Below the pieces are notes generated by a model that was not told the origin of the DNA, made no database searches, and saw only the letters and a program-made list of their open reading frames with translations. Both the position numbers and the translations under genes were made by a program. From NCBI GenBank assembly GCA_030156535.1, contig JASGMJ010000005.1, positions 104,930 to 168,929 on the forward strand: 64,000 bases of DNA. The letters are read 5' to 3'. Source of the stretch: Candidatus Sumerlaeota bacterium (GTDB taxonomy: Bacteria; Sumerlaeota; Sumerlaeia; SLMS01; JAHLLQ01). Positions 14,123 to 58,891 of this stretch are shown here, piece after piece; positions within the stretch are counted from its first letter, which is position 1; the number at the start of each line of letters is the position of its first letter.

Positions 14123-14155
14123 CGGCCCACCTGACAACGACACGAAAAGTTCAAC

Positions 14156-14190: not shown

Positions 14191-14196
14191 CCGAAG

Positions 14197-15501: not shown

Positions 15502-15542
15502 GGTGGTCGTGTCGGCCGCGCCAAACCACGACGCGGACTGCG

Positions 15543-32036: not shown

Positions 32037-32687
32037 ATGCAAGCACGTTGGACCATCCTGGCAGGAGGCGTGGCGCTCATGGCCCTCGCTCTGGCCACCC
32101 CGATGCATGTCGATGCGCAGAATAACCCGGGCCGCCGAGGCGGCCGCGGCAACTTCGACCCCTCTGAAATGTTCGACCGCATGGACATCAACGGTGACGG
32201 CTCGCTCGACGCCACCGAGTTCCGCGGCGGCGAAGAACGTCTGAAGGAAGCTGACACGAACGGCGACGGCAAGGTCTCGAAAGAGGAATTGAGCGCGGCC
32301 TTCCAGGCACGCATGGCAGGCGGCCAGCGCGAGGGCGGCCCCGAAGGCCGGCCCGGCCCCGGAGTGGACCGTTTCAAAGAGGAGCTTGGCCTGAGCGACG
32401 ACGAGTGGGCCGTACTGAAGCCCCGCATCGAGAAAGTCATCGCGCTCCAGAGCGAGATGCGCGGCGGCGGACGCGGCAACACCGCGTCGATGCCCGAAGT
32501 CGAGGCTCTGCGCACCGCGCTCGAGAATCCCGAAGCCACCAACGATGAAATCACCCAGCGCGTGGCCGAACTGCGCAAGGCCCGCGAGGAGAAGCAGGCC
32601 GAACTCAAGACCGCCCGCGAAACGCTGCGCGAACTCCTCACGCCGCGCCAGGAAGCCCTCCTCGTTCTCAACGGTCTCCTCGACTAA
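32037..32687 (+). CDS. Secreted EF-hand calcium-binding protein
   Basis: AAGGAGA before the ATG, a signal peptide, and two canonical EF loops (DINGDGSLDATE and DTNGDGKVSKEE). Confidence 0.7.
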   Translation: MQARWTILAGGVALMALALATPMHVDAQNNPGRRGGRGNFDPSEMFDRMDINGDGSLDATEFRGGEERLKEADTNGDGKVSKEELSAAFQARMAGGQREGGPEGRPGPGVDRFKEELGLSDDEWAVLKPRIEKVIALQSEMRGGGRGNTASMPEVEALRTALENPEATNDEITQRVAELRKAREEKQAELKTARETLRELLTPRQEALLVLNGLLD

Positions 32688-32696
32688 AGCTCAATC

Positions 32697-32724
32697 GTCC
32701 CTTCGGGACTCCGGTTCCTTTTTG
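32697..32724 (+). terminator. Possible terminator or RNA hairpin upstream of gspE
   Basis: GTCCC-TTCG-GGGAC (UUCG tetraloop) followed 9 nt later by TTTTT. An alternative longer pairing with the downstream GGTCCC is also possible. Confidence 0.35.
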
Positions 32725-32797
32725 GGCCGGGGTCCCATGACTGATAGATCGCAACTCAAGCCACAAACAACAAACCACGAACCACGGCCTCAAGCCA

Positions 32798-34486: not shown

Positions 34487-34489
34487 CTC

Positions 34490-35722
34490 ATGGGAGTCTT
34501 CGTCTACAAGGCGTTCAGCGAAACGGGGCAGATGACCGAGGGGCGCGTCGATGCTCCCGGCCGCCGCGAAGCGCTGCGGCTTCTTGAAGAACGCGGCCTG
34601 CGCCCCGTGCGCGTGGAGGATGCGGCGGGGCGTCCAGCCGAAAGCGAAACGGGTGGGTGGGATCCGTTGGCGATGCTGCGCGGACGCGTCACCGCGCGCG
34701 ACCGCGAACAGTTCACGCGCCAGCTTGCCAGCCTTCTCGCCGCCGGTGTTTCCCTCAGCCGTGCGTTGCAGATTCTTTCGCGCGAAAGCTCGCGCCCTCT
34801 CATTGCCGCGCGGTGGAAACGCCTGCGCGAGATGGTGGTCGATGGCATGTCGCTGGCCGATGCGATGGCACGCCAGCCCGACGTTTTCCCGCGGATCGAC
34901 ACGGCCATGGTGCGCGCGGGTGAAACGGGCGGCTTCCTGCCGCTGGTTCTCGGGCAGGTGGCGGATTTTCAGTCGCGCGACCGCGAAGTGCGTTCGCGTC
35001 TCGTGTCGGCGATGACGTACCCGGCGGTGCTGATGGCGCTGACCGTGGCGGTGGTCATCTTCCTGATGACGTTCTTCATTCCGCGTTTCCAGACGATGTT
35101 CGAAGGACTGGGCGCGCCGTTGCCGTTGCTGACGCGGGCAATCATCGCGGCGAGCGAAGGCGTGCGCGACTGGGGACTGGTCGTGGCGGCGGTGCTGGTG
35201 ATTGCGCTGGTGGCCGCGCGGCAATGGATCGCATCGCCGGCGGGGCGGCGTTCCTGGCAGACCTTCGCCCTGCGCATGCCGCTCTTCGGTTCGCTCGCGG
35301 CACGTTTCGCCGCCACGCGCTTCTGCCGGATGCTCGGGACGCTCAGCCGCTCGGGCGTCGAACTCATCACGGCGTTGCAGGTTTCGCGCGAATCGCTCGG
35401 CAATCAGGTGCTGATCGACACGCTGACATCCTCCATCGAAAACGTGCGCAAGGGCGAGTCGCTGGCGCGCAGCCTGGCCGCCTGCGAGCGCCTGTTCCCC
35501 CCTTCGACGATCGAGATGATCGCCGTGGCCGAGGAATCCAGCCGCCTCGATCAGGAACTCGTGCGCATCGCCGAGGAATCCGAGAAGGATCTCGACGGGC
35601 AACTGCGGCTCGCCGTCGCCCTCGCCGAGCCGGCCTTGCTCTTCGTGATGGCGGCGGTCATCGGCACGATTTTTATCGGCATGGTCCTGCCGATCTTCAC
35701 CATCCAGGACTACATCAAATAA
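34490..35722 (+). CDS. gspF: Type II secretion system platform protein GspF/PilC family
   Basis: Two T2SSF repeats and 3 TM helices; begins 4 nt after the gspE stop. Confidence 0.9.
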   Translation: MGVFVYKAFSETGQMTEGRVDAPGRREALRLLEERGLRPVRVEDAAGRPAESETGGWDPLAMLRGRVTARDREQFTRQLASLLAAGVSLSRALQILSRESSRPLIAARWKRLREMVVDGMSLADAMARQPDVFPRIDTAMVRAGETGGFLPLVLGQVADFQSRDREVRSRLVSAMTYPAVLMALTVAVVIFLMTFFIPRFQTMFEGLGAPLPLLTRAIIAASEGVRDWGLVVAAVLVIALVAARQWIASPAGRRSWQTFALRMPLFGSLAARFAATRFCRMLGTLSRSGVELITALQVSRESLGNQVLIDTLTSSIENVRKGESLARSLAACERLFPPSTIEMIAVAEESSRLDQELVRIAEESEKDLDGQLRLAVALAEPALLFVMAAVIGTIFIGMVLPIFTIQDYIK

Positions 35723-35745
35723 CCCTCGGAAGAAGGAGTGGCACC

Positions 35746-36174
35746 ATGAGTCTGTTGCATCGCACCACGCGCGTTTCGCGGCGGGCCTTCTCGCTCGTCG
35801 AAATGCTTCTGGTCCTCGTGATCCTCGCGACGCTGGCGGCGATCGTGATTCCGCGCTTTGCGGGACGCAGCGAGCAGGCCAAGGAAACCGCCGCCAAGAC
35901 GCAGATCAGCGCGCTTTCCACCGCACTCGATTCCTTCGAGGTCGACAACGGCTACTTCCCCAGCAGCAGCGACGGTCTCAACGAACTCATCGTGCAACCC
36001 GATGGCGCAACGAACTGGCGCGGGCCCTACATGAAGCAGGGAATCCCCAATGATCCCTGGGGCGCGGCCTACCTGTACGAATATCCCGGCACGAACAACG
36101 CCGACGGATACGACCTCTCCTCGATGGGGCCGGACGGCCGCGCGGGCACGGAAGACGACATCACGAATTGGTAG
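35746..36174 (+). CDS. gspG: Major pseudopilin GspG
   Basis: GAAGGAG before the ATG. Prepilin leader and helix RRAFSLVEMLLVLVILATLAAIVIPRFAG. GspG signature QISALSTALDSFEVDNGYFPSS. Confidence 0.85.
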   Translation: MSLLHRTTRVSRRAFSLVEMLLVLVILATLAAIVIPRFAGRSEQAKETAAKTQISALSTALDSFEVDNGYFPSSSDGLNELIVQPDGATNWRGPYMKQGIPNDPWGAAYLYEYPGTNNADGYDLSSMGPDGRAGTEDDITNW

Positions 36175-36183
36175 GCGAAAGCA

Positions 36184-36675
36184 ATGACTCGGCGGCAACA
36201 CATCGCGGCACGCGGGCAAGAGGGCTTCACGCTGATGGAGCTGATGGTGGTGCTCGCCCTGCTGTCGGTGATCGCGGCGCTCGTTGCTCCGCAGCTTCGC
36301 GGTTTTGTCACCGGGCGCGCGAGCACCGAGGAGTGCCGCCGCTTTGCCGCACTTACCGAGTACGCGCGCGAGCACGCCATCGGCAACGCCGTGCGTGTGG
36401 CGCTCTGGGTTGACGAGGACGGCGATTCCTATGGCCTGCGCGACACGCGCACCTCGCGCGACATCTATACGTACCAAACCGCGACCGGCCTGACGATCAC
36501 GCCCTTCGACGAGGAAGGGGAAGCCCTTGAGGAGGATACGGAACTCGTGATCTGGCCGGATGGCGAAATCGACTTCGAAAGTCCCGCTTCCTACCACATC
36601 GACGAGAAGGGAACGACGGTCTTCGTCATTGAGCTGAACGAGAACGGAACGCGCTACGAGGTGACGACGCCATGA
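36184..36675 (+). CDS. Minor pseudopilin, GspH-like
   Basis: Class III signal G-FTLMELMVVLALL; size and operon position match GspH. Confidence 0.6.
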   Translation: MTRRQHIAARGQEGFTLMELMVVLALLSVIAALVAPQLRGFVTGRASTEECRRFAALTEYAREHAIGNAVRVALWVDEDGDSYGLRDTRTSRDIYTYQTATGLTITPFDEEGEALEEDTELVIWPDGEIDFESPASYHIDEKGTTVFVIELNENGTRYEVTTP

Positions 36676-37058
36676 GACTCGCGCTCCATCCACGCGGAAT
36701 GACGTTCGTCGAGCTCCTTGCCTCGATGCTGCTGCTCTCCATCGTGCTGCCCGTCACGGTCGGCGCGATTCTGTACGCGAACCGTACCTCCTCCATGGCC
36801 GTGCGCAAACGCGACGCGGCGTTCCTGGCCGACCAGATTCTCCAGGAAGTCATCGGCACGGAGTCGTGGGAGGATGGCGATCAGAGCGGCGAGTTCGAGG
36901 ACGACTTTGCGGGATGGACCTGGGAGATGACCGTTTCGTCATGGGACGTCGAAGCCATGCAGCAGGTCGACGTCACGGTGTTCTATCCCGTGCAGGGCAC
37001 GACATACTCCGAAACGCTCACACGCCTTGTGATGGCGGAGGAGGAAGAGGAGTCGTGA
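36672..37058 (+). CDS. Minor pseudopilin, GspI-like
   Basis: G-MTFVELLASMLLL prepilin motif. The ATGA start overlaps the upstream stop. Confidence 0.55.
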   Translation: MRLALHPRGMTFVELLASMLLLSIVLPVTVGAILYANRTSSMAVRKRDAAFLADQILQEVIGTESWEDGDQSGEFEDDFAGWTWEMTVSSWDVEAMQQVDVTVFYPVQGTTYSETLTRLVMAEEEEES

Positions 37059-37738
37059 AACGCACCCGTGGCTTCACGCTGATTGAGACGCTGCTCGCGC
37101 TGGGCATCGCCGCCACTCTGCTGGCCGCGGCGGTCTCCGTGCTCTTCGGTGCGGTGCGGATGCGCAGCGCGGCGGCCGAGCTCTCCGAGGAGAAGGGCGG
37201 CACACATCGCATTGCTTCCGTGATTCGCAGCGACCTCCAGAACGCGGTGGTGCCCGCCGGATTGCTCGCGGGCACGATGCTCCTGGAGTCCGACGGCTCC
37301 GAAGACACCGCGATGGACACACTGGAATTTTACACCGCCTCAGGAACATTGAACGACAGCGAACCCTGGGCTGACATCCGCCGCGTGGAGTACCTCCTCG
37401 ACACCGAGAGCGAAAGCGCGACCGGCGGGGCCTATCCGTTCATCCGCCGCGAAACGGTGAACCTGCTCGCCTCCACCGAGGACGACGAGGACACGCGCGA
37501 CACCGTGCTGCTTGCCGAAGCAACCGGCCTTTCCATCGAGTGCTTCGACGGCGAGGTCTGGTCGGAAACGTGGGACTCCACGGTGGTCGAAAACGAAAAC
37601 CCGGTTCTCGTGAGTCTGACCGTGACACCCGCCGAGGGCAATTCCCTGGTTTTTCTTCAGCATCTGACGACTCAGCCCCGCCCCACTGCCACGGCAGCGG
37701 CAGCGGCTCCATCCCAACAAACGGGAGATGAGCCATGA
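37055..37738 (+). CDS. Minor pseudopilin, GspJ-like
   Basis: GTG start overlapping the upstream TGA and preceded by GGAGGAGGAAGAGGAG. Prepilin motif G-FTLIETLLALGIA. Confidence 0.55.
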   Translation: MKRTRGFTLIETLLALGIAATLLAAAVSVLFGAVRMRSAAAELSEEKGGTHRIASVIRSDLQNAVVPAGLLAGTMLLESDGSEDTAMDTLEFYTASGTLNDSEPWADIRRVEYLLDTESESATGGAYPFIRRETVNLLASTEDDEDTRDTVLLAEATGLSIECFDGEVWSETWDSTVVENENPVLVSLTVTPAEGNSLVFLQHLTTQPRPTATAAAAAPSQQTGDEP

Positions 37739-39072
37739 TGCCGCGCCGCCGCCGTGCCATTGTCTTTGTCGTGCTTCTCTGGGTCATCTCCACGATGGTT
37801 TCCACGGCAATCTACTTTGGTCATTCCGCCCGCATGGCCTACCTCGCGAGCGAGAACAGCGTCGCCGGTCTTCAGGCGGTGCATGCCATCGACTCCGCCA
37901 TCGAGTACGTGCGCTTTGCACTCGAAACCATCGACGAAACCGGCAAAGTGCCGGACCTCGAAGAGGAGGGGTACGCCGTCGAGAACGTTGCTGTCGGTGA
38001 AGCGCACTTCTGGCTGCTTGGCATGGATCATGACGCCCTCCAGACACCGACGGAGTTGACCTTCAGTCTCGTCGATGAAGCATCGAAACTGAACATCAAC
38101 ACAGCGGAACTTGAAATGCTCGAAGCGCTCCCCGATATGACGGCTGAGTTCGCCGCCGCCATCGTGGACTGGCGCGACGAGGACAGCGACCTCACCACCA
38201 ACGGCGCCGAGTCCCAGGACTACCTCCTTCTCGACACGCCGTACCTTTGCAAGGATGCGCCCTTCGAAAGCGTCGAGGAATTGCGCCTCGTCCAGGGCGC
38301 CGATCTTACCCTGCTCTTCGGGGAGGATGAAAACCGCAACGGTATCCTCGATCCCAACGAGGACGACGGCGACGAACTGTGGCCGCCCGACGACGCCGAC
38401 GGCCAACTCGACACCGGGATCGTGCGTTTTCTGACGGCGCATTCACGCGAACCGAACACGCGCGATGACGGCAGCGCGAAGGTGAACCTCAGGGGGGAGT
38501 CTGCGCGCGTTGATCTGCAACAGCTTCTTATCGAAACCCTCGGCCAGAGCGTTGCCGACCGGGTGATGGAAAGCCTTGGTCCCGAGCTCACCGATGTCGG
38601 CAGTCCGCTGGAGTTCTACCAACTCAGTGGCCTCTCGGCGACAGAGTTCGCGCAGATCGAGGACGCCCTCACGATTGAGAGTGGCGATTACCGTACGGGT
38701 CTCGTGAACGTGGCGACGGCACCGAGTGAAGTGCTCGCGTGCCTGCCCGGTATGACGTCGGAGAAGGCGATTGAACTCGTTGAAGCAAGAGCATCCCTCG
38801 ACGAAACCACACTCGAAAGCACCGCCTGGCTGACCACCGTCCTCGACGCGGACACCGTCGCACTGGTGGGTCCGTTCGTCACGAGCCGCTCCTATCAGTT
38901 CGGCCTCGACATCGCCGCAACGGGACGGAACGGGCGCGGCGTGCGCCGCACGTTCGCGGTGCTCGACGTGGAGGACGAGGCGCGGGTGATTTACCGACGC
39001 GATCTGGCCCGCGCCGGATGGCCACTGGACGACGACACCATGGCGGCACTGCGCGAAGGGACGGAACAATGA
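37735..39072 (+). CDS. gspK: Minor pseudopilin GspK
   Basis: N-terminal hydrophobic helix lacking Glu5. The GspK-characteristic KLNINTA motif is present, plus an acidic calcium-site-like region. Confidence 0.7.
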   Translation: MMPRRRRAIVFVVLLWVISTMVSTAIYFGHSARMAYLASENSVAGLQAVHAIDSAIEYVRFALETIDETGKVPDLEEEGYAVENVAVGEAHFWLLGMDHDALQTPTELTFSLVDEASKLNINTAELEMLEALPDMTAEFAAAIVDWRDEDSDLTTNGAESQDYLLLDTPYLCKDAPFESVEELRLVQGADLTLLFGEDENRNGILDPNEDDGDELWPPDDADGQLDTGIVRFLTAHSREPNTRDDGSAKVNLRGESARVDLQQLLIETLGQSVADRVMESLGPELTDVGSPLEFYQLSGLSATEFAQIEDALTIESGDYRTGLVNVATAPSEVLACLPGMTSEKAIELVEARASLDETTLESTAWLTTVLDADTVALVGPFVTSRSYQFGLDIAATGRNGRGVRRTFAVLDVEDEARVIYRRDLARAGWPLDDDTMAALREGTEQ

Positions 39073-40463
39073 CTGGAAGCATGACGCCCATGCGACGCAA
39101 GAACTCGCGCCTGCTGGTTATCGAGCTTCGGCCCGGCTGGGTGCGGGCCACCGAATGCCACGCGGGAAACACAACGGACGCTCCATTGCGCTCGGTTATG
39201 GGCGAACTCTCGTGTGATCCCTTTGGGGGCGATCCCGAAACGGCGGGAGCGGAAATTCGTCTCTTGCTGGAACAGGGTGGTCTTCGCCCTGGCGCTGCCA
39301 TCGTCACGGTGCCCATGGCATGGACGATGACGCACGCCTTCGAAGCCCCCGAGCTTTCCGCCGAGGATTTTGCCAGTCTCCTGGAACTCGAAGCAGAAAA
39401 GGCGTTCCCCTACCCGCCGGAGGACATGGTCCTCTCGCAGACGCGCTGCACGCGCGCGGACGCACCGGATATCGCCATTGCCGCGGCCATGCCGACAGCG
39501 AAGCTCGACGCGCTCGAAGCCGTTCTGCGCGCTGCCCACATCGCGCCTTTGGCCATCGTTCCCGCCTGCGTCCATGCACACGGCGAAGCCGCCAATGGCG
39601 TGTCCCTCATCGCCGAAGGGCACGACCTGGTGCTTTGCATCGCGTCGGACGGCGGGTTGCTGGCCCTGCGCGTTCTCTGCAAGATGGAACCCGGCGCGGG
39701 CATCGAGGACGAAGCACTGCGTGCCGACATTCTCAGGGAACTGCGCGTGGCCCTGCGCACGCTGCCCGAGGAATTGGCGGAAGCGAGGACAACCGTTGCG
39801 GTTCACGCGCCGCTGGAACTTGCCGCACGCCTCGCCGAGCAGCTTGGCCCGCAGGCCGGACGCATGGGCATTTCCGTCAAGGCCGTGCCATCGCCACCCG
39901 ACGAAATTGCAAGGAGGCTTTCCGCCGCCGCTTTTGAGGGCCAGGCGTTGACGGTCAATTTCCTCCGTCCCCGCATTACGCGCTGGCAACGGCACCTGGC
40001 ATCAATGCGCCGCAAGGGCTTCGTCGTCCGCGCCGCGATCGTGGGCGCCTCGCTTCTTGCCATAGCCGTGCTCGTCTTCGCCGCACACACGTGGCGGGCA
40101 CGTTATCTCGATGCGAAGTGGCTCGCCATGCGCGACGGCGTTGCCAGCGTCGAAAGCTATGAGAAGGACATCCGCGCATGGCGTCCGTGGAACGATGCGA
40201 GCGCACCAAGCCTCGACCTGCTCAAGAGCATCACCGAGGCCTTTCCGGTATCCGGCGAAGTAACCGCGAGCACGCTGCACATTAAGGACCAAACGACGGT
40301 GACCTGCACGGGCACGGCAACGTCGGCGAGTAGTTTCAGCCGATTCCAGGAAGCGCTCGGCGCACGCCCGGGAGTCTCCAACTTGAAAGTGCAACAAATG
40401 CGGGGAGACTCACCCGTTCAGTTCAGCCTGTCGTTTACGTGGAACCCCAGGGGGAAGACATGA
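39069..40463 (+). CDS. T2SS inner-membrane component, GspL / PilM-PilN-like (actin-fold N-domain + TM + periplasmic domain)
   Basis: ATGA overlap with gspK. A cytoplasmic actin-like domain is followed by the TM segment VVRAAIVGASLLAIAVLVFAA and a periplasmic C-terminal region. Confidence 0.55.
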   Translation: MTGSMTPMRRKNSRLLVIELRPGWVRATECHAGNTTDAPLRSVMGELSCDPFGGDPETAGAEIRLLLEQGGLRPGAAIVTVPMAWTMTHAFEAPELSAEDFASLLELEAEKAFPYPPEDMVLSQTRCTRADAPDIAIAAAMPTAKLDALEAVLRAAHIAPLAIVPACVHAHGEAANGVSLIAEGHDLVLCIASDGGLLALRVLCKMEPGAGIEDEALRADILRELRVALRTLPEELAEARTTVAVHAPLELAARLAEQLGPQAGRMGISVKAVPSPPDEIARRLSAAAFEGQALTVNFLRPRITRWQRHLASMRRKGFVVRAAIVGASLLAIAVLVFAAHTWRARYLDAKWLAMRDGVASVESYEKDIRAWRPWNDASAPSLDLLKSITEAFPVSGEVTASTLHIKDQTTVTCTGTATSASSFSRFQEALGARPGVSNLKVQQMRGDSPVQFSLSFTWNPRGKT

Positions 40464-40993
40464 GAGCGGACAAACGCCGACGGCTTCTGCTGATACTCGC
40501 CGCCTGTGGATTGGGCGTGCTGCTGCTCGACGCAGTTGTCGTGCGACCCTTGCTTGCCATTTGGGACAAGCAGGCGGCGCGCATCGTGCAACGCACGCAG
40601 GACATCGAGCGCGGCACCGCCCTTCTCGAACGAGAGGAAGACATCGCCGCGCGCTGGAAGGAAATGCGCGAGAGTTCGCTTCCCGCCGACACGGCGCGAG
40701 CCGAGGCACTCGTGCTCGATGCCATGACGAAGTGGGCGTCAGCCAGCGGCCTGAGCATTTCAAGCGTCCGCCCCCGGTGGGTCGAGATGAAGGACGTGGG
40801 CGACCGCTTCGAGATTCGCCTCTCGGCGGAAGGCGACATCGCGGCGCTGACGCGCTTTCTCTTTGAACTGGAAACCGCCAAGCTCCCGCTCTATCTCGAC
40901 GAAACACAGATTCGCGCACGCGACGAAAACGGCAGGAGCCTGGGAGTGGATCTCGTTTTCTCCGCGCTGCGCATCGAGGGGGCAAATACATGA
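40460..40993 (+). CDS. T2SS GspM/PilO-like bitopic protein
   Basis: ATGA overlap with the upstream gene. Short cytoplasmic N-terminus, a single TM (LLLILAACGLGVLLL) and a periplasmic ferredoxin-like region. Confidence 0.5.
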   Translation: MRADKRRRLLLILAACGLGVLLLDAVVVRPLLAIWDKQAARIVQRTQDIERGTALLEREEDIAARWKEMRESSLPADTARAEALVLDAMTKWASASGLSISSVRPRWVEMKDVGDRFEIRLSAEGDIAALTRFLFELETAKLPLYLDETQIRARDENGRSLGVDLVFSALRIEGANT

Positions 40994-41535
40994 AGCGCCG
41001 AAACCTCGCCGTTCTTGTCCTTGCACTGATCGCGTTCTCCGGCCTGCTGGCTGCGCAGTCGGGCACAACGAAGAATGCCTCATCAGGCACGACCCTATCG
41101 CTCGATACGTACAGCATCATCATCGAGCGCAACATCTTCAACCCCACGCGCCGCGCTCCCAGTTCACGTCCCGCACCGCCCGTCTCAAGGGCTCCGGCCG
41201 TCACGACGATCACGCTGATCGGTGCCGTCGTGAAGGAGGACGAGCGGACGGCGATCTTCTCGTCCGCCGTCACCGAGCACGCGGGGCATCGCAAGACGGG
41301 CGACAGCATCGCGGGCTTTACCATCGAATCCATCGACACGAAGGGCGTCACCATCTCGATCGACGGCGATACGAAGCTCTGGGCCGTTGGCTCGATCCTC
41401 CGCCGCATCGACGACGGCGACTGGTACCTCCCCCAGGCCGCCGGTGCCGCCACGGACATCACGAAAGACCCAGCCGCGGAAGCGGCCATTCTGAAACGCA
41501 TGCGCGAACGCCGCGAGCAGGAGAAGGCAAAATGA
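40990..41535 (+). CDS. Periplasmic T2SS accessory protein (GspC/PilP-like)
   Basis: Signal peptide MKRRNLAVLVLALIAFSGLLAAQ, a Pro-rich linker and a small beta domain. Both ends are coupled by overlap. Confidence 0.4.
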   Translation: MKRRNLAVLVLALIAFSGLLAAQSGTTKNASSGTTLSLDTYSIIIERNIFNPTRRAPSSRPAPPVSRAPAVTTITLIGAVVKEDERTAIFSSAVTEHAGHRKTGDSIAGFTIESIDTKGVTISIDGDTKLWAVGSILRRIDDGDWYLPQAAGAATDITKDPAAEAAILKRMRERREQEKAK

Positions 41536-42998
41536 CCACCCGACGCCACATTGCCGGTTTGCTGATGATCGGTTTTCTCGCCACGGCTTCACTGGCGGCC
41601 CAGGAACCCGACACCACCACCGGGATACTCGGCACCACCGAGGCATCCCCCGATACCACGACGCCACAGACAGCTGAAATCAGCTTCAACTTCCGCGGCG
41701 CCACCATCGACACCGTGCTCGACTACCTCAGTGAGGCCGCGGGGTTTGCCGTCGTCACCACGGTTCCGCTCAGCGGAACCATCGACGTCATCAGCCACCG
41801 TCCCCTCAATCCCGAGGAGTCGCTCGAACTCGTGACGACGATCCTTCACGAGAAGGGCTATGCGGCGTTGAGATCGGGGAACACGCTGACCATCGTCAGC
41901 CGCGAGGATGCCAAGCAGCGCGACATTCCCGTGCGCCAGGGCTCGGACCCGTTGACCATTCCGAAAAACGACGAAATGGTGACGCAGATCATTCCGATCC
42001 GCTACAGCCAGGCATCCGAACTCGTCGAGAACCTGCGCCCCCTCCTGCCGTCCTACTCCACGATCTCGGCCAACGAGGGAAGCAACGCGATCCTGCTGAC
42101 GGACACGCAGGCGAACATCCGCCGCGTCGCTGAGATTATCACGGCACTCGACAAGTCCTTCAGCGAGATCACCACCGTGAAAGTCTTCCAGCTTCGTCAT
42201 GCCGATGCCAAGGAGACCGCAACTCTCATCACCGAACTCTTCGAGCAGGAAACGACGAGCGGCAGTAGCAGCAACAGCCGCCAGCTTCCGCCGTTCTTCC
42301 GGCGCGGGGGCGACGACGGCGACAGGCAGAGCAGCAGTAGCACCCAGAATGCCGTCGTCCAGGCATCCTCGCGCGTGACTGCAACCGCCGACGAACGCAC
42401 CAACTCCCTCGTCGTCGCGGCGCCTCCGCAACTCATCACGACCATCGAGGAGCTTATCGCCACCCTCGATCTTTCCACGGAAATCCTCACCGAGGTGCGC
42501 GTCTTCCCCCTGAAGTACGCCGACGCCGAGGAGATGGCGGACGTCATCACGGAGATCTTCGCGGCCGATTCCACCACACAATCCACCACGAACTCCCGCA
42601 GCAATGTGCGCATCGGCTTTCGTGGGCCAGGGGGGAGAGCTCCGGGAGGAAACACCGTAAGCAACAGCGAGCAGAGTGAACGCGAGCAGGAATCCGCCAC
42701 CGTCCTCGCCGTCGCCGACACGCGCACCAACAGCGTCGTCGTCAGCGCCGTCAGCGATGTGCTGACCCAGATCGCCGGCGTCGTCCATGAACTCGACCGC
42801 GATCCCGCCGGCACGAAGAAGGTCTACGTCTATTCCCTGAAGAACGCCAACCCCGAGGAAGTTTCCGAGCTCCTCGACGAAATGTTCGGCAGCACCAGCA
42901 GCTCCAGCAGCTCACGAACAAGTACGAGCAACACCAGCTCCCGCAACACCACGAACACCACCAACACAAACCGCAATACGAACACAACCAACCGCTAA
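41532..42998 (+). CDS. Secretin N-terminal domains protein (N0-N1-N2-N3) with a Ser/Thr/Asn-rich C-terminal tail; lacks the secretin channel domain
   Basis: Signal peptide MTTRRHIAGLLMIGFLATASLAAQEP. N0-like domain ISFNFRGATIDTVLDYLSEAAGFAVV...GYAALRSGNTLTIV, followed by three secretin_N-like repeats. Low-complexity tail STSSSSSSRTSTSNTSSRNTTNTTNTNRNTNTTNR, then TAA. Confidence 0.7.
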   Translation: MTTRRHIAGLLMIGFLATASLAAQEPDTTTGILGTTEASPDTTTPQTAEISFNFRGATIDTVLDYLSEAAGFAVVTTVPLSGTIDVISHRPLNPEESLELVTTILHEKGYAALRSGNTLTIVSREDAKQRDIPVRQGSDPLTIPKNDEMVTQIIPIRYSQASELVENLRPLLPSYSTISANEGSNAILLTDTQANIRRVAEIITALDKSFSEITTVKVFQLRHADAKETATLITELFEQETTSGSSSNSRQLPPFFRRGGDDGDRQSSSSTQNAVVQASSRVTATADERTNSLVVAAPPQLITTIEELIATLDLSTEILTEVRVFPLKYADAEEMADVITEIFAADSTTQSTTNSRSNVRIGFRGPGGRAPGGNTVSNSEQSEREQESATVLAVADTRTNSVVVSAVSDVLTQIAGVVHELDRDPAGTKKVYVYSLKNANPEEVSELLDEMFGSTSSSSSSRTSTSNTSSRNTTNTTNTNRNTNTTNR

Positions 42999-43030
42999 AC
43001 ATGCCGCCAGAAACGCGAGGAACAGACATC

Positions 43031-44080
43031 ATGGCCAGCATCCGCTCCGTACTCCAACCCGCCCTCTGCACCACTGCCCTTCTTCTTGCGGGCACACTGG
43101 CATCGGCTCAGGAGCCCACCTTGGAACCTTCCGGGGTGCGCGGCAATCTCGGCACCAACCTCAGCGGCGATACCATTGTGCGCTACGACCTCGAAACGGA
43201 CTCGATCATCGTCATCACCGACGAGGAAACAAATGCACAGATCGCCTCGCTGATCGAAACGCTCGATCGCCCCGTTCCCCAGGTTCTCATCAAGGTGCTC
43301 TTCCTCGAAGTCACACACACGGACGACCTCGATCTTGGAGTCGAAGCCAGTTACTCGTTCGACGCTGGGACCGACTCGCTGCTCACGGATTTCGGAGTCG
43401 CCAGCGCCTCGCGCGGCGGCTTCCTCAAAATCATCGAGGACGACCTCAGCGTCACGCTCCGCGCCCTTGCCGGTCAGGGGAAACTTGAAGTCCTCTCGCG
43501 CCCCTCTGTCATCGCGCGGAACAATGAACTCGCGACGATCACCATCGGCCAGGAAGTCCCCTTCATCCGCAACTCCCGCGTCACCGACAGCGGCCAGACG
43601 ATCAACACGATCGAGTACGAGGACATCGGCATCATCCTGGAAGTGACGCCACACATCACGCCCGACCGCCTGGTCGAAATGGAAGTTGCTCCGGAGATCT
43701 CGACGCTGACCAGCGAGTCCGTCGCCATTACCGACACAACCGATGCCCGGGTGATTGCCAAGCGCTCGGCGAGCACCCGCGTCGTCGTCGCCGACGGAAA
43801 GACCGTTGTCATCGGCGGGCTGATGGAGGACAATATGACTGAGTCTGTCTCCAAGGTCCCCCTGCTCGGCGACATTCCCCTTGTCGGTGCCCTCTTTCGC
43901 AGGACGATCAAGGAGAAGAGCAAGACGGAGCTTCTGATCTTCCTGACGCCGACGGTGGTGACGGGGGTCGAAGATCTGGAGACGCTGACCGATTCAGAGC
44001 GCGCGCAGTTCGACATCGTTCCCACCGCCTTCGATGGCGTTGACATGCCGGACTACCTCCCTCCGCTGCCCGAGGATTGA
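43031..44080 (+). CDS. gspD: Secretin (GspD/PilQ family) C-terminal channel protein with its own signal peptide and one N-domain
   Basis: GAGGAA sits 9 nt before the ATG. Signal peptide MASIRSVLQPALCTTALLLAGTLASAQEP. Secretin core VLSRPSVIARNNELATITIGQEVPFI...VVIGGLMEDNMTESVSKVPLLGDIPLVGALFRRT. Confidence 0.85.
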   Translation: MASIRSVLQPALCTTALLLAGTLASAQEPTLEPSGVRGNLGTNLSGDTIVRYDLETDSIIVITDEETNAQIASLIETLDRPVPQVLIKVLFLEVTHTDDLDLGVEASYSFDAGTDSLLTDFGVASASRGGFLKIIEDDLSVTLRALAGQGKLEVLSRPSVIARNNELATITIGQEVPFIRNSRVTDSGQTINTIEYEDIGIILEVTPHITPDRLVEMEVAPEISTLTSESVAITDTTDARVIAKRSASTRVVVADGKTVVIGGLMEDNMTESVSKVPLLGDIPLVGALFRRTIKEKSKTELLIFLTPTVVTGVEDLETLTDSERAQFDIVPTAFDGVDMPDYLPPLPED

Positions 44081-44083
44081 CGC

Positions 44084-45568
44084 ATGGTGCACGCCGAGCC
44101 CAAGGAACGTTTGCTCTGGCCCATCCGCATCGGCCTCGCCGGCGTCTGGATCGGCATCGTCGTCCTTCTGGCCGTCGAATACGGCCGCGTGCGCGAGCAG
44201 GCGCGCGACAACCTGCTCCAGCGTGCCCGCGACATCAGTGATACGATCGCCCTCATCAGCCGCTCGGGCCGCATCGGCATGATCCGCGAGGATCGCCTGA
44301 AGGCCACCCTCGATGAGCTCGTTCGCGGCGAACTCCTGCGCTCCGTGATGCTTGTCAACGCCCTGGGCGAAACGGTTGTCGCGGCTGGAGAGCCCGGCGC
44401 CAGCCCCCCCCAACTCCCTCACTCGGGCGTCCGATGGGAGCCCGACCGCGTCATCGTGACCAACGTCGTGGACCTCGGTGCCGACGAGGCCAGCGACTCG
44501 CGCCCGCGCAACCCGACCATCGTCATCCCTGAGTCCAAGGACGACGAGCGCATACGCCCTCCCCGTCCCGAGGATGCCCCCACGTCGCCGACTACCGAGG
44601 CGCCGCCACCGGGCGACGGAGGATGGGATCGCAAGCGCCATCCGTTTGGCCGCCCTCCCTGGATTTCCGAATCAGAGTTCCGCGATCTGATTGAACGCCG
44701 CGGCGTTCACGGTTTCGTCCTGACGCTGAATACGGCGGGCATGAACCGCGAACTGAACCGCGATCTCCGGATGCGCACGCTGCTCGCGTTTGTCGCGTTG
44801 CTTGCCGTCGGCGGCATTGGCGTCGCTGTCTCCTCCTGGAGCCGGTTCAACCGTCTGCTTCTCCGGCTTGTCCGCAGCCAGCAGCAGAACGAGCACCTGA
44901 AGGAAATGAACCTGGCCGCCGCTGGCCTTGCCCACGAAACGCGCAATCCCCTGAATCTGATTCGGGGCCTGGCACAGACAATGGCCCAGCAGGAAGACAC
45001 CTCGCCGGAGACCCGCGACCGCTCGCGCCAGATCGTCGAGGAACTCGACAGAGTCACTTACCGCCTCAATGAGTTCATCCGCTACTCCAAGCCGCCGCAG
45101 CCACGCCTCGCGCCTGTCGATCCCTCAGCCGTCGCGGAGAACGTGCGCGATGCCCTGGCCGCGGACCTCGAAGAGAGACACGCAGCCATCCGCTTCGAAG
45201 GCGGCCCCGCAACCGTCGAGGCCGACGAGATGCTCCTGCGCCAGTTGCTCTTCAACCTGTTGCTCAACGCTGTCCAGGCCGTGGGCGAGGAGGGTGAAAT
45301 CGTCGTGACAACGAAGCAGCAGGCGGACCGCACTCTCACGCTCTCCGTCGAAGACAACGGTCCCGGGGTCCCGGCGGAACTGCGCGACGAAATCTTCCGT
45401 CCCTACATGACAACGAACGCCGCGGGGAGCGGCCTTGGCCTTGCCGTGGTCCGCCAGATTTGCGCTGCCCACGACTGGCGAATTGTGTGTACGGAATCGG
45501 CACTGGGCGGCGCGTGCTTCACCGTCAGCGCCATGCGGCCGGGTGGGAAGGCGAGTCCGGCTTCATGA
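44084..45568 (+). CDS. Sensor histidine kinase (PilS/NtrB-like) with a periplasmic sensor domain
   Basis: Two TM helices flank a periplasmic region of about 200 aa. H-box LAHETRNPLNLIRGL. HATPase N, G1 and G2 boxes (NLLLNAVQA, DNGPGV, GSGLGLAVV). Confidence 0.85.
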   Translation: MVHAEPKERLLWPIRIGLAGVWIGIVVLLAVEYGRVREQARDNLLQRARDISDTIALISRSGRIGMIREDRLKATLDELVRGELLRSVMLVNALGETVVAAGEPGASPPQLPHSGVRWEPDRVIVTNVVDLGADEASDSRPRNPTIVIPESKDDERIRPPRPEDAPTSPTTEAPPPGDGGWDRKRHPFGRPPWISESEFRDLIERRGVHGFVLTLNTAGMNRELNRDLRMRTLLAFVALLAVGGIGVAVSSWSRFNRLLLRLVRSQQQNEHLKEMNLAAAGLAHETRNPLNLIRGLAQTMAQQEDTSPETRDRSRQIVEELDRVTYRLNEFIRYSKPPQPRLAPVDPSAVAENVRDALAADLEERHAAIRFEGGPATVEADEMLLRQLLFNLLLNAVQAVGEEGEIVVTTKQQADRTLTLSVEDNGPGVPAELRDEIFRPYMTTNAAGSGLGLAVVRQICAAHDWRIVCTESALGGACFTVSAMRPGGKASPAS

Positions 45569-46932
45569 CCACACCTGCCCCTCCCAAAGTTCTTGTCGTC
45601 GACGACGACGCTGGCAATCGCCGCCTGCTGTCCGGGTGCCTGACGCATCACGGCTACGAGGTCGTTCAGGCCACCGACGGCGAGAATGCCCTCGAAGTGT
45701 TGCGCTCAACTCCTGCCAGCCTGGTTGTCTCTGACATTCGAATGCCACGCATGACGGGGCTCGATCTTCTGCACGCCCTGCGCGATGCCGGCTCCGGCGT
45801 TCCCGTGCTCCTCGTCACGGCCTACCCCGACGTGCGCGATGCCGTCGGCGCCATGCGCGACGGCGCCGTGAACTACCTGGAGAAGCCGATCGACCTCGAC
45901 GAGTTCCTCGCGTCGGTGCGCAATGCCCTGAAGACGCCAGCCGGCGCGGCGCCCGCCTCGGATTTGAGTGCGCTCGTGCCGCCCCATGGCATGATCGCCG
46001 AGAGCCCCGCCATGAAGGCCATCCTGCGCGACATCGCGATCGCCGGGCCGTCGGACTCGCGCGTGTTGCTCACGGGCGAGAGCGGCACGGGGAAGGAAGT
46101 TGTGGCCGACGCGCTGCATGCGGCCAGCCCGCGCGCCTCCGCGCCCTTCATCAAGGTCAACTGCGCCGCGATTCCCGAGCACCTTCTCGAAAGCGAGCTC
46201 TACGGCCACGAGAAGGGGGCGTTCACGGGAGCCGTGGCGCGCCGCATTGGTGTCTTCGAGGAAGCCCGCGGGGGCACGATCCTGCTCGACGAAATCGCGG
46301 AGATGCCCGCCTCGCTCCAGGCCAAGCTTCTGCGTGTGATTCAGGACGGCACTTTTCGCCGGATCGGCGGCTCGCAAACGCTCCAGACCGACGTGCGCCT
46401 GCTCGCCTCCACCAACCGCGATCTCGAGCAGGAAATGAGCGCGGGGCGCTTTCGCGAGGATCTCTTCTTCCGCCTCAACGTCTTCGAGATCCATCTGCCG
46501 CGCCTGCGCGACCGCCCCGAGGACATCGTCCCGCTGGCCACCCATTACGCCTCGCAGTTTCTCGGCGCCCGGGTACGCTTCTCCCCCGCCGCGATGGCGT
46601 TGCTGTGCACCTACACTTGGCCAGGCAATGTGCGTGAGCTGCGCAACGCGATGGAGCGCGCCGTGCTTCTCTCGCGCAGCGAAGTCATCATCCCGGAACA
46701 CCTGCCGCCACGCCTGCGCAGCGCCGCTCCTCCAGCGGACGAGCCTGCTCCGTCCGAGTCGTCCGGTGGCGTCATGGCCGAGGTCGAGCGCTCGGTGATT
46801 CTGGAGACCCTACGCAACAACCGGTTCAACCGCTCGGAGACGGCCCGCGCGCTCGGCATCAGCCGCCGCGCCCTGATCTACAAGCTGCAACGCTTCCGCG
46901 AGCAGGGCCACGCCGTGGATGAGGGAATGTGA
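45565..46932 (+). CDS. Sigma-54-dependent response regulator (NtrC/PilR family)
   Basis: REC domain [14 protein letters not shown]...D. AAA+ Walker [15 protein letters not shown] sigma-54 contact motif. C-terminal Fis-type HTH. The ATGA start overlaps the kinase stop. Confidence 0.9.
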
Positions 46933-47047
46933 GAGCGGTTCGGGGTTCGTGAGGGGCGCCCTCCTCGCAGTCATCCCTTCGTGCCAGATCATGTGATTCG
47001 CGGCCCCATTCTCATCGACTCGCAAATAAGTGTTTCCAAACTCTTTG

Positions 47048-47091
47048 AACTTTGAGTTGGCGGACAACTTCAAAAGTCCCATGCTTTGAGT
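47048..47091. promoter_or_regulatory. Repeat element CTTTGAGTTG-N5-CAACTTCAAAAG-N7-CTTTGAGTTG (two direct repeats flanking an inverted copy); candidate binding site for the adjacent NtrC-family activator
   Basis: Read directly from the sequence at 47048-47057, 47063-47074 and 47082-47091. It lies between the regulator stop (46932) and the start of the ELWxxDGT gene. Confidence 0.3.
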
Positions 47092-47133
47092 TGCAGGGTG
47101 GCAAGAACGCCGTCCTGGGGGAAACTCTTGGGG

Positions 47134-50100
47134 ATGCCTGATCGCATGAGCTGGGCTGGACAAACCTTAGCCGCCGGGATGCTGGCGGCGGCCTTCGGCG
47201 CGAGCGCGGCAGCGCAGCCCGCCGGCAATGCCTATCTGATCAAGGATTTCGCACCCGGCCCGGACCCGGAGCTGCGCGCCGCCAGCCACGGCCCCCTGGA
47301 GGGCATGGCCCACCGCGGAAAGTTCTACTTCGAGGGTTCCTACACGCCAACGTATGATGAGGGAGTGGGCGGCACGAGCATCTATCCCGGCATGTTGGTC
47401 GTCAGCGATGGAACAACCTACGGAACACTGCCGCTGAAGACGATGGACAACCTGCGCTTTCTTGGTCCGCTGGGCGACCATGTGGTCTTCGCGGACTCGG
47501 ATTTTGGCGCGGAAACGGGACGGCGCATTAACGTCACCGACGGATCGGTCAAGAATACGAAGGAACTTCGCCTGATCCGCGACGCCGTGGAAATCCTGCC
47601 GGGGATGGAGGCGGGCGGATGGTACTACTTCTTCGCTCTCTTCGAGGATGGACGCACCGAATTGTGGCAGACCGACGGAACCGTGGACGGAACGAGGAGC
47701 GCGCAGGCGCTGCTGCCGCCGGGATACACGGCCGACGCTTCGGTGCCGATTGCGGGCTGGGACGCGAGCCAGTTGCTGCTTCTGGCGCACGACGCGAATG
47801 GCGTTGGGAATCTGGTGCTGGTCAATGGCGGAACCCAGAGCGCGCGGCGCATCTTCTCCGACAACTTCCTGGCAACATTTGGCGCACCGGATGACTTCGT
47901 GGTGGCCGACGGCACGATTCTCTACCGCTCGGGCCGCCGGTTCTTCTCCAGCGACGGCACCGAAACGTTCACCCAGATCGTGGGAGACCTCCCGCTCATG
48001 GAAGGAGCATCGGAGGAAATCCGCCTGATTCCGGCGGACACGCGCTTCTTCCTGCTGACGAACTTCACCAGCTCGTTCTACGAAGTCTGGTCCACCGATG
48101 GATCACCCGGGAGCCTGGGGCTCGCACGGCGTCTCGACTGGTCGTGGAGCGGCGCGCCGACCATTGGCGAGACGGCCACATGGAACGACAAGCTGTACTT
48201 CACAGAGTCCGGGCTCCCTTCCTCGTCGGGGAGCGAACGCCGCGGCAAACTCTGGGTCTCGGATGGCACAACACTGGGGACTTTCGAGCTCTGGGCCCAG
48301 TTGCGCGAGATCGATGGTCTGCTGGCGACGACACGCGGTGTGATCTTCGGCGTGGACCAGAGCGCGGGGCCACCCGGGCTCTACATCACGCAGGGCGTGG
48401 CGGGCGAAACAGAGAACCTGCGTCCCGGCTACTGGCGGCCGCTGGCGGAAACCGATTCCGACGGCGTGCCCGGCGGCGAGCGTCTCTTCCTCACCGGCAA
48501 ACAGTTCACCGACACGACCTATGGCCGCGAACTCTGGGTGTCGGACTGGACGGATTACGGCTGGTATCTGCCCAAAGACCTCTCGGCCTCGGGGCGCACG
48601 TCCGTTGCCTTCAACCCTCTTGGCGCGTTTGGCCGGTACGTCTTCTTCAACGACGGTTACCAGGGACACGTCTGGATCACCGACGGCACGGAGGCAGGAA
48701 CGCAACCCATCGGCAGCATCCTCGGCGACTTCTATATCAACATGGCCGGCGATTTGGACATCGTGGCCGAGGAACTTCAGGCCATTTTGCACGGCGATCT
48801 TCTGATCATTTATGTGCGTGGAATCATGTGCACCAACGACGAGTGCTGTGGAGACGGCCCGGATGAGGACCAATCGTTACTCGACTTTCTGAACGACCTT
48901 CTCGAAGACGATGAATGCAAGGATGCAATGAAATACGTGACGAGCGTCTGGAGAACCGATGGAACCCTGGCGGGCACTTACTCAACGGGAGTCATTGAGA
49001 ACGAATGGCTCTGGTTTCCCACCACGTTCAACCACCGGATCATGCTCTACGCTCAGGCGTTCATCGACCACGACACGGAGCCTCCGACGATCTATCCGCC
49101 GGGCCTTTGGGCCAGCACGGGCACGCGGGCAACGACCAGTGAAGTCCGAACGTTCCCCTGCAACGCCGAAAACGTCGCCGACAAGGGAGTCAGCCCCTTT
49201 GGCACCGTCCTCGGCGAGGCCTGCTCCGCCGAGTTCATCCCACTCGGAAACACTTCCTCGCACTTCTTCTTCTCGCTCCGCGAACCGATCTACGAAAACG
49301 ACCCCACGCAGGACAGGCAACTGTGGGTGTCCGACACCACGGCCACCGGTACGTTCCCGCTGGTGCCGCTGCTGACGGCCGACGGAATTTCGGAAACGAT
49401 CCATCTGACGGGTGCAACGTATCAGGACAAGTTCTTCTTCTCCCCCACCATCATGCCCCCCGTCGGCTCGGGAAGTGTTCCTCTGGTCGAAGGCGAACTT
49501 TGGGAGACCAACGGCACGATGGCGGGAACGCAGCGCATGACGGTTGTGCAGTGGGAGGGGCAGGACCAGGCAATTCGCAACCTGACGAAAGCGGGGAACT
49601 ACCTCTTCTTCACGGGCAACGGCGGAGAACTCTGGGTGTCGGATGGAACGGATCTGTTCACGCTGCCGATGACGTACATCACGGGCCGCGAGTCCGTGCA
49701 CGCGGACGCGTTGCTCGGCGAAGTCAACGGCCGCCTGGTTTTCTCCAGCGACGGCAATCTGTGGTCCACCGACGGCACGAAGTTCGGAACGATGCGCCTG
49801 CCCGACGCCGTACGCGGCCCGGAGACCGCACCCATTCAGGAGTTCACACCCATCAAGGACAAACCCTTTGCCATGTTCAGTTCCGGCACGGCGGCCACCG
49901 GTCTGGAAATGTGGTACACTGACGCCACGGCATCGGGAACGTATCCGGTCTTCGAGATGACCCCGGGGCCGTACTCCTCGCATCCGCGCAGCTACGTGGG
50001 GGCGCTGGGCAACGTGTACTTCCAGGCCTCCACACCGGAAGGCGGAAACGAACTCTGGCAACTCTCAACAAGCCAGATCAAGAAACCGGCGAGCAGCGGC

Positions 50101-50193
50101 TGGGCCACACGCGACATCATCATCGAGTTCGGGAAGGATGGAGAAGCCGCCGAGTCGCAACCCGGCGGCCAGCAGGAACAACCGGCGGAATAG
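47134..50193 (+). CDS. Large secreted ELWxxDGT-repeat (beta-propeller-like) protein
   Basis: Signal peptide MPDRMSWAGQTLAAGMLAAAFGASAAAQP. At least 11 repeats of the E-L-W-x-S/T-D-G-T-x-x-G-T type (ELWQTDGTVDGT, KLWVSDGTTLGT, HVWITDGTEAGT, QLWVSDTTATGT, ELWVSDGTDLFT, NLWSTDGTKFGT ...). The start is ambiguous among 47086, 47134 and 47146. Confidence 0.7.
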   Translation: MPDRMSWAGQTLAAGMLAAAFGASAAAQPAGNAYLIKDFAPGPDPELRAASHGPLEGMAHRGKFYFEGSYTPTYDEGVGGTSIYPGMLVVSDGTTYGTLPLKTMDNLRFLGPLGDHVVFADSDFGAETGRRINVTDGSVKNTKELRLIRDAVEILPGMEAGGWYYFFALFEDGRTELWQTDGTVDGTRSAQALLPPGYTADASVPIAGWDASQLLLLAHDANGVGNLVLVNGGTQSARRIFSDNFLATFGAPDDFVVADGTILYRSGRRFFSSDGTETFTQIVGDLPLMEGASEEIRLIPADTRFFLLTNFTSSFYEVWSTDGSPGSLGLARRLDWSWSGAPTIGETATWNDKLYFTESGLPSSSGSERRGKLWVSDGTTLGTFELWAQLREIDGLLATTRGVIFGVDQSAGPPGLYITQGVAGETENLRPGYWRPLAETDSDGVPGGERLFLTGKQFTDTTYGRELWVSDWTDYGWYLPKDLSASGRTSVAFNPLGAFGRYVFFNDGYQGHVWITDGTEAGTQPIGSILGDFYINMAGDLDIVAEELQAILHGDLLIIYVRGIMCTNDECCGDGPDEDQSLLDFLNDLLEDDECKDAMKYVTSVWRTDGTLAGTYSTGVIENEWLWFPTTFNHRIMLYAQAFIDHDTEPPTIYPPGLWASTGTRATTSEVRTFPCNAENVADKGVSPFGTVLGEACSAEFIPLGNTSSHFFFSLREPIYENDPTQDRQLWVSDTTATGTFPLVPLLTADGISETIHLTGATYQDKFFFSPTIMPPVGSGSVPLVEGELWETNGTMAGTQRMTVVQWEGQDQAIRNLTKAGNYLFFTGNGGELWVSDGTDLFTLPMTYITGRESVHADALLGEVNGRLVFSSDGNLWSTDGTKFGTMRLPDAVRGPETAPIQEFTPIKDKPFAMFSSGTAATGLEMWYTDATASGTYPVFEMTPGPYSSHPRSYVGALGNVYFQASTPEGGNELWQLSTSQIKKPASSGWATRDIIIEFGKDGEAAESQPGGQQEQPAE

Positions 50194-55069: not shown

Positions 55070-58891
<3,822 letters not shown>

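Follow-up and report, generated by a model that had tools for sequence, protein, structure and literature searches.

A predicted Sec-exported ELWxxDGT-repeat protein encoded behind a type II secretion gene cluster in Candidatus Sumerlaeota, probably not driven by the neighbouring sigma-54 activator

Does a gene for a large repeat protein that lies directly behind a type II secretion system (T2SS) gene cluster belong to that system, either as its cargo or as a target of its regulator? This question is raised by a stretch of 64,000 nucleotides from a Candidatus Sumerlaeota bacterium (assembly GCA_030156535.1, contig JASGMJ010000005.1, positions 104,930 to 168,929 of the forward strand; referred to here as the window), in which a gene encoding an ELWxxDGT-repeat protein (hereafter the ELW gene and ELW protein) follows the sigma-54-dependent regulator of a T2SS cluster on the same strand. 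Overall, we favour as the probable explanation that the ELW gene is a lineage-specific accessory gene for a Sec-exported ELWxxDGT propeller protein and is not driven by a sigma-54 promoter of the neighbouring activator.

The plus-strand reading frame is open across 47086-50193, and translation from the ATG at 47134 gives the 1,019-amino-acid protein behind the sigma-54 regulator that the initial annotation of this locus had described (ELW gene, 47134-50193), although the word "giant" used there is overstated for a protein of about 1,000 amino acids. The database start is the ATG at 47146, which yields a product of 1,015 amino acids that is identical to a "hypothetical protein" of a Candidatus Sumerlaeota metagenome-assembled genome; the same gene, with an identical product (47146-50193), is also found on an independently assembled Logan contig. 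The G+C content at third codon positions (0.79) is similar to that of the neighbouring genes, and no G+C anomaly was found in the ELW gene within a window of 64% G+C. No paralog of the gene was found elsewhere in the window.

The assignment to a repeat family is clear, with a match of 145.4 bits (E = 3.6e-43) to the NCBIfam model TIGR04534 (ELWxxDGT_rpt), for which the curated cutoff is 65. The tandem ELWxxDGT units of ~47 amino acids by which this family is recognised are present, and an alignment of 61 homologs reproduces the family consensus. The initial annotation, which had proposed a TIGRFAM search as a check, was therefore right about the repeat type. No Pfam family was detected in the ELW protein at E <= 0.01. 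A large protein search returned 242 homologs, many of them named "ELWxxDGT repeat protein", from Bacteroidota, Planctomycetota, Myxococcota, Chloroflexota, Verrucomicrobiota, Cyanobacteria and other phyla. With the ELW protein itself excluded, these homologs show at most 27% identity over most of the query and up to 34% across short local segments, and no ortholog was found with which the intergenic region could be compared (next-best homolog <=27%). Homologs are often fused to domains such as the type IX secretion system (T9SS) C-terminal domain or to cadherin, PKD, HYR, SLH, Calx-beta or RTX domains, and this company indicates, as far as domain content goes, an extracellular or surface location that is reached via differing export routes. 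A search of a literature library on the "ELWxxDGT" repeat found no paper there. Judged by its sequence, the ELW protein is an ordinary, divergent and lineage-specific member of the known but uncharacterised TIGR04534 family.

Export is predicted from the N-terminus of the ELW protein, MPDRMSWAGQTLAAGMLAAAFGASAAAQP, in which inspection and hydropathy reveal an Ala-rich hydrophobic core together with AXA motifs. A predicted Sec signal peptide, MPDRMSWAGQTLAAGMLAAAFGASAAA, with the cleavage site before QP, was placed at 47134-47214 (plus strand) on the basis of hydropathy and the AXA motifs, which is a heuristic call. Residues 3-22 form a helix in the AlphaFold model of the protein, and the signal peptide named in the initial annotation thus finds heuristic support in hydropathy, in the AXA motifs and in this helix. 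Hydropathy analysis and inspection identified neither a lipobox Cys in the N-terminus nor transmembrane-like segments in the rest of the protein. By this heuristic inspection, the ELW protein has the Sec signal and the lack of lipobox and membrane anchor expected of the soluble periplasmic intermediate of a T2SS substrate. T2SS substrates are not known to carry a recognisable linear sequence signal. Since the protein has no other sorting domain and a complete T2SS is encoded next door, it could be a substrate of this system, a possibility that is suggested by adjacency and by the lack of another sorting domain.

The initial annotation had counted at least 11 ELWxxDGT repeats. A regular expression identified 12 W-containing motifs of this type, and a hidden Markov model (HMM) derived from the ELW protein itself detected 16 repeat units between nt 47401 and 50154. 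The blade array (47401-50154, plus strand) comprises these 16 HMM-detectable units, 12 of them strong and 4 weak, and ~2 further degenerate units recognised by eye. An AlphaFold2 model based on the 61 aligned homologs (pLDDT 74.8, pTM 0.64) consists almost entirely of beta-strand. Foldseek comparison of the whole model with the PDB returned beta-propellers exclusively; the top matches by E-value were the YWTD propellers of LRP4, LRP2, LRP6 and ROS1 (E = 4e-15 to 1e-13), and the best whole-model TM-scores were obtained with GH74, PorZ and Elp2. Residues 695-1003 were also cut out as a single propeller to fix the blade number. The separate model of this segment (pLDDT 79.9) matched sortilin, LRP6, BtuG and Cdc20 propellers in Foldseek; these matches stayed generic (TM <=0.56), and this segment was not adopted as a way to fix the number. 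A PDB sequence search found no credible match to a solved structure, the best being a spurious one at E = 0.079. The ELW protein is therefore predicted, on the basis of the models, to form a tandem multi-blade beta-propeller with no close solved relative.

Insertions modelled with low confidence were found at residues 191-246 and ~524-592, the latter being acidic and containing four Cys residues, and the C-terminal tail (residues 984-1015) was disordered in the model. The acidic Cys-containing insertion (48766-48921, plus strand) corresponds to residues ~541-592 of the 1,015-amino-acid form and fills the gap between the repeat matches at 498-540 and 593-619; the blade consensus stops at this insertion, which interrupts the array. 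The model has a pLDDT of 37-64 over residues 521-600, with helices at 578-592. The Cys residues 566, 571, 572 and 595 (numbering of the 1,019-amino-acid form) follow a Cys-x4-Cys-Cys...Cys pattern.

Whether the ELW gene is a regular partner of the T2SS can be read from related loci. The T2SS cluster comprises the genes at 32037-46932, all on one strand, and ends with a sensor histidine kinase (44084-45568, plus strand) and its partner, a sigma-54-dependent response regulator of the bacterial enhancer-binding protein (bEBP) type (45565-46932, plus strand). The latter is the last conserved gene of the cluster and carries a receiver domain, Sigma54_activat, an AAA lid, HTH_8 and a GAFTGA loop, features that confirm the sigma-54 regulator named in the initial annotation. 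A search with the activator yielded 80 loci, 53 of which carry a two-gene secretin immediately before the kinase and the regulator; the phyla in the record titles of these 53 loci are Sumerlaeota, Hydrogenedentota, Verrucomicrobiota, Lentisphaerota, Omnitrophota and others. An ELW homolog downstream of the regulator was found in none of the 53 related loci (tblastn, 1e-5). The genes after the regulator vary and are often convergent, with DnaE, E1 dehydrogenase and xylose isomerase among the examples, and at about two thirds of the related loci this place is taken by a convergent or housekeeping gene. In the closest relative (locus L002; regulator 69-71% identical), the slot after the regulator (11380-16362) begins after 48 nt with the gene for a 765-amino-acid protein of no known family that bears a signal peptide, followed by a pullulanase with PUD, CBM48, alpha-amylase and pullulanase C-terminal domains, which echoes the pulA-pul T2SS linkage. 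A rhamnogalacturonan lyase follows the regulator in another locus (L013). Given this mixture of downstream genes and the frequency of convergent ones, the idea that a conserved "cargo slot" generally follows the regulator was rejected. Around two ELW homologs examined in other genomes, neither T2SS nor sigma-54 genes were seen, and a conserved T2SS linkage, which would support but not define a T2SS substrate, was not found for the ELW gene. As far as gene order indicates, the ELW gene lies at a synteny breakpoint at the 3' end of the T2SS operon and is not a conserved T2SS partner.

The intergenic region between the regulator and the ELW gene (46933-47133, plus strand) has an AT-richer core at ~47020-47095, and no canonical terminator, sigma-70 or sigma-54 promoter or Rfam match was found in it. 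The initial annotation had pointed to CTTTGAGTTG as a direct repeat with an inverted copy in between, and this arrangement is real, although the inverted copy is imperfect. The two direct copies are exact (47050-47059 and 47084-47093, both on the plus strand), and a partial copy, CTTTGAA, stands before the first of them (47043-47049). The imperfect inverted copy CAACTTCAAAAG (reverse complement CTTTTGAAGTTG) is located at 47066-47077 on the minus strand (repeat I4: 9 nt, 89% complementary). Together these are three full half-sites spaced ~17 bp, with the centre of the inverted copy ~17 bp from each direct copy. Exact copies of CTTTGAGTTG occur at 47050 and 47084 and nowhere else in the window. 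The statistical support for the repeat is modest: a direct repeat of at least 10 nt appears in 2.5% of dinucleotide shuffles of the intergenic region and in 0.2% of those of the 81-nt core, and it appears in 64 of 638 (10%) overlapping 200-nt tiles of the window.

Further searches around the repeat were negative. The 10-mer is absent from 87 other fetched loci, and the palindrome has no exact match in a metagenome collection. Neither a sigma-70-like promoter nor an intrinsic terminator was found at 46800-47300, no significant RNA fold was detected (z = -0.39 for 47020-47110 and +0.05 for 46925-47045), and no Rfam family matched the intergenic region at E <= 1. A repeated or mobile element was considered and rejected, given the lack of matches in the metagenome collection (palindrome) and in the 87 loci (10-mer), together with the absence of tRNA genes from the window and of a G+C anomaly. 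The repeats may have arisen by chance, or they may serve another factor as an operator or promoter feature particular to this locus.

In the initial annotation this arrangement was likened to an enhancer-binding-protein site and the ELW gene was proposed as a target of the neighbouring regulator. Promoters of NtrC-family bEBPs carry 17-bp TGC...GCA dyads ~80-150 bp upstream of TGGCAC-N5-TTGC. A search of 46933-47146 for TGGCAC-N5-TTGC with up to 2 mismatches found none. The best score upstream of the ELW gene in a position weight matrix (PWM) scan, with sigma-54 frequencies that approximate the published consensus, was 4.3 bits, which is reached at 0.3% of all window positions and is thus at chance level. 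These results agree with the failure to see a sigma-54 promoter by eye in the initial annotation. The best -24-like element, TGGCAAG at 47099, is likewise at chance level, and the repeats end ~6 nt upstream of it; a candidate picked by eye at the same position, TGGCAAGAACGCCGT, scored 2.4 bits and was dismissed. Moreover, the CTTTGAGTTG array lies 40-90 nt before the ELW start codon, which is too close for a typical looping upstream activating sequence (UAS) together with a promoter.

A different picture was obtained at the head of the T2SS operon. A candidate UAS dyad, TGCGCAACGTTTGCACA (31871-31887, plus strand; 17 bp, TGCGCAA-N3-TTGCRCA), is followed ~82 nt further on by an element of the -24/-12 type, TGTCATGCCTCCTGCTT (31960-31976, plus strand), which lies upstream of the EF-hand gene that opens the operon; each of the two patterns is unique in the window. 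The dyad TGCGCAA-N3-TTGCGCA occurs once in the window at 1 mismatch and otherwise not at fewer than 3 mismatches. Its best match in the ELW intergenic region has 5 mismatches in 14 positions, and the CTTTGAGTTG array is unrelated to it in sequence. The window and four relatives share this layout at the operon head, with the dyad placed ~80-90 nt before a promoter of the sigma-54 type. In the two closest of these at the operon head, the dyad TGCGCAATTCCTGCGCA is followed by TGTCATACAATCTGCTT (L082, 2160-2267) and the dyad TGCGCAATACTTGCGCA by TGTCACGGGTCTTGCCT (L083, 2096-2200). Among the more distant ones, L087 has the dyad TGCGCAAGAGTTGCGCA and the canonical promoter TGGCACTGGAATTGCTC (2207-2315), and L088 has the canonical promoter TGGCACTGGTCTTGCGT after the dyad-like CGCGCAACCGTTGCGCA and a weaker TGCGCAAATCTTGCCCA (~2170-2277); these dyad-like sites of L088 were read by eye and were not flagged by the pattern search. 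The promoter is a canonical TGGCAC-N5-TTGC in L087 and L088 and reads TGTCAY-N5-YTGC in the window, L082 and L083, with GT for GG in the -24 element. The pattern of dyad and promoter was not seen in L085 or L086.

Taken together, the CTTTGAGTTG repeats have no -24/-12 partner, do not resemble the operon-head dyad and stand too near the start codon, and both the gene and the motif are absent after the regulator in the ~50 related loci. The proposals that the array is an enhancer-binding-protein site and that the ELW gene is a target of the neighbouring regulator are thus not upheld, and nothing in the sequence ties ELW expression to the regulator of the secretion system. This removes a tempting but unsupported regulatory link.

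Our explanation for this locus is as follows. The ELW product would be a Sec-exported soluble protein whose ~16-18 four-stranded blades are arranged as tandem beta-propellers. It would act outside the cytoplasm, probably as an extracellular binding protein or adhesion module, and the adjacent T2SS may be its route across the outer membrane. Its gene could be transcribed by read-through of the T2SS operon, behind which no terminator was detected, or from a promoter that escaped recognition in the AT-richer stretch at 47020-47095.

Other explanations for the repeat and for the expression of the gene have to be weighed against this one. That the CTTTGAGTTG repeats are a UAS of the adjacent sigma-54 regulator which switches on the ELW gene as T2SS cargo seems very unlikely. 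The ELW gene does adjoin a genuine bEBP gene on the same strand, the repeat array is real and has dyad character, and TTGAGTTG occurs once on the opposite strand ~40 nt before gspE (this 8-mer has 4 matches where 1.2 are expected, and 7% of shuffles reach that number). However, as a motif shared with a T2SS promoter TTGAGTTG was rejected, as it is not kept before gspE in a strain with a 96% identical GspE and the operon does not begin with gspE; the CTTTGAGTTG motif is also absent from the 87 other loci. Besides the lack of a -24/-12 element and the closeness to the start codon, it is the different dyad TGCGCAA-N3-TTGCGCA that holds the UAS position in five genomes, and this dyad does not occur before the ELW gene. 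A possible but tentative alternative is that the array, with 3-4 alternating TTTGAR half-sites at ~17 bp, is unconnected with the T2SS two-component system and serves as operator or promoter element of another regulator, whose gene lies elsewhere in the genome. Its exact 10-mer occurs twice, in the window only here and in the sole AT-richer stretch just before the start codon, and the shuffles of the region and its core produce such repeats infrequently, yet the window tiles carry an equal or longer direct repeat often enough to weaken this argument. Neither sigma-70-like hexamers nor a metagenome match for the palindrome were found, and the singleton status of the gene leaves no orthologous region for comparison.

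The gene could also be a genuine T2SS exoprotein gene, the last of the operon, that is expressed by read-through from the sigma-54 promoter at 31960, the repeats being irrelevant or modulatory. This appears doubtful. It is consistent with the shared strand, with a gap of ~200 nt that holds no intrinsic terminator or significant hairpin, with the predicted Sec signal and the absence of an alternative sorting domain, with the secreted protein and pullulanase after the regulator in L002 and the lyase in L013, and with the classical precedent of pullulanase and the pul T2SS. On the other hand, the convergent or housekeeping genes in most related loci argue against a general "cargo slot", and a gap of 200 nt that is AT-richer is more often seen where a separate transcription unit begins. 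An elaborated form, which we regard as distinctly improbable, would see the ELW gene as a recent, species-specific acquisition that is carried on the operon transcript and encodes an exoprotein of a sigma-54-controlled T2SS, namely an adhesin or ligand trap of three propellers, with the evenly spaced CTTTGAGTTG half-sites as the operator of a second regulator that gates read-through. If true, the 3' end of a T2SS operon that is widespread in Sumerlaeota and PVC-type (Planctomycetes-Verrucomicrobia-Chlamydiae) phyla would be a variable "cargo slot", occupied by a pullulanase in the nearest relative. As for function, there is only a slight chance that the ELW protein is not a binding protein but an enzyme on a propeller scaffold (a GH74-like glycosidase or PQQ-type dehydrogenase, for example). 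GH74 xyloglucanases give the best whole-model TM-scores (0.29-0.31), some homologs have weak PQQ_2 (PF13360) matches, and Sumerlaeota are reportedly polysaccharide degraders. These TM-scores are, however, far below fold-level identity and the PQQ_2 matches reflect a generic propeller, while no catalytic Pfam or NCBIfam family was matched and the PDB sequence search gave nothing better than the spurious match mentioned above.

Several points weigh against our preferred explanation of an exported propeller protein encoded by a lineage-specific accessory gene. The predicted signal peptide and secretion come from heuristic inspection of the sequence, and the putative binding or adhesin role is suggested by the domains of distant homologs (24-27% identity) and by a generic fold. 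The TM-scores behind this fold are low, with none above 0.31 for the whole model or above 0.56 for the C-terminal segment. The regular ~17-bp spacing of the three alternating half-sites is not explained by chance alone. At the operon head, the -24 element of this genome has GT instead of the near-invariant GG, and it is from its conserved position that the dyad is assigned to the operon's own regulator as the likely target. Finally, the secreted protein and pullulanase after the regulator in L002 keep the idea of a cargo at the operon tail alive.

Analysis of the rest of the T2SS cluster provided useful by-products, namely the conserved sigma-54 promoter with its UAS dyad, a conserved EF-hand first gene and a split secretin in all 53 related loci. 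The gene order is a secreted EF-hand protein, GspE, F, G, an H-like pseudopilin, I, J, K, an unassigned 464-amino-acid protein, M, an unassigned 181-amino-acid protein, a GspD N-domain protein, a separate secretin-domain protein, the histidine kinase and the sigma-54 activator. The EF-hand gene (32037-32687, plus strand; 216 amino acids, Pfam EF-hand_5/1/6) lies directly before gspE, as it does in 4 of 6 relatives (L082, L083, L086 and L087); the other two have a small gene with no Pfam match on record. Upstream of the EF-hand/gspE operon of L086, tandem ~10-nt units, CACATTCTCA and CACGTTCTCA, were observed (~1750-1860) at the position that the UAS dyad has in other relatives. The secretin is encoded by two adjacent genes, the first (41532-42998) with N0, four Secretin_N domains and an S/T/N-rich tail, and the second (43031-44080) for a 349-amino-acid secretin-domain protein with its own signal-peptide-like start. 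The two parts are divided by at least one stop codon in 53 of 53 related loci (L002-L063 and L079), in 30 of them in different frames, which makes the split a conserved feature of this T2SS clade and not an assembly error. Elsewhere in the window, a cobalamin riboswitch (Rfam RF00174, 95.5 bits; 30774-30992, minus strand) was found upstream of a 554-amino-acid open reading frame (29111-30775, minus strand), and a 1,273-amino-acid Ser/Thr protein kinase fused to two WD40 beta-propeller regions is encoded at 55070-58891 (plus strand).

With the ELW protein, a large and uncharacterised family of exported repeat proteins gains a further, divergent member, which shows that the C-terminal sorting domains usual in ELWxxDGT proteins can be missing. 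The locus also provides a candidate T2SS substrate in Sumerlaeota, an uncultured phylum in which no secreted proteins have been assigned.

Comparison with known systems helps to place this locus. The layout of sigma-54 promoters that are activated by NtrC-family bEBPs, e.g., PilR at pilA, was found at the T2SS operon head of the window and of its relatives but not before the ELW gene, where the repeats differ in sequence, are no more than 90 nt away from the start codon and lack a -24/-12 partner. The pullulanase PulA, encoded beside the Klebsiella pul T2SS genes, is the classical linked exoprotein. The ELW protein is similar to PulA in that it is predicted to be soluble and Sec-dependent and in that its gene adjoins a complete gsp cluster; it differs in having no catalytic domain and in a T2SS linkage that is not kept in the ~50 related loci. 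Among propellers, the six-bladed YWTD (LDL-receptor class B) proteins LRP4, LRP2/megalin, LRP6 and ROS1/Sevenless, which led the Foldseek matches, have tandem extracellular ligand-binding propellers, and we note that the ELW-x-S/T-D motif of the ELW blades is reminiscent of YWTD. However, the ELW protein has no match to Pfam Ldl_recept_b (PF00058) at E <= 0.01 and no EGF modules, and the TM-scores to YWTD propellers, 0.12-0.16 with the whole model, rise only to 0.36-0.40 with the C-terminal segment, with sortilin, BtuG and Cdc20 scoring equally well or better. Within TIGR04534, the ELW protein stands apart as a singleton that lacks the T9SS C-terminal, cadherin, PKD, HYR, RTX and SLH domains common in the family and that has the acidic Cys-containing insertion and several degenerate blades. 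It shares with this family the ~47-amino-acid repeat with the consensus LxFxA...G.ELWxSDGTxxGT, present in 16-18 units over ~1,000 amino acids, and, with most of the 242 homologs, a predicted N-terminal signal peptide.

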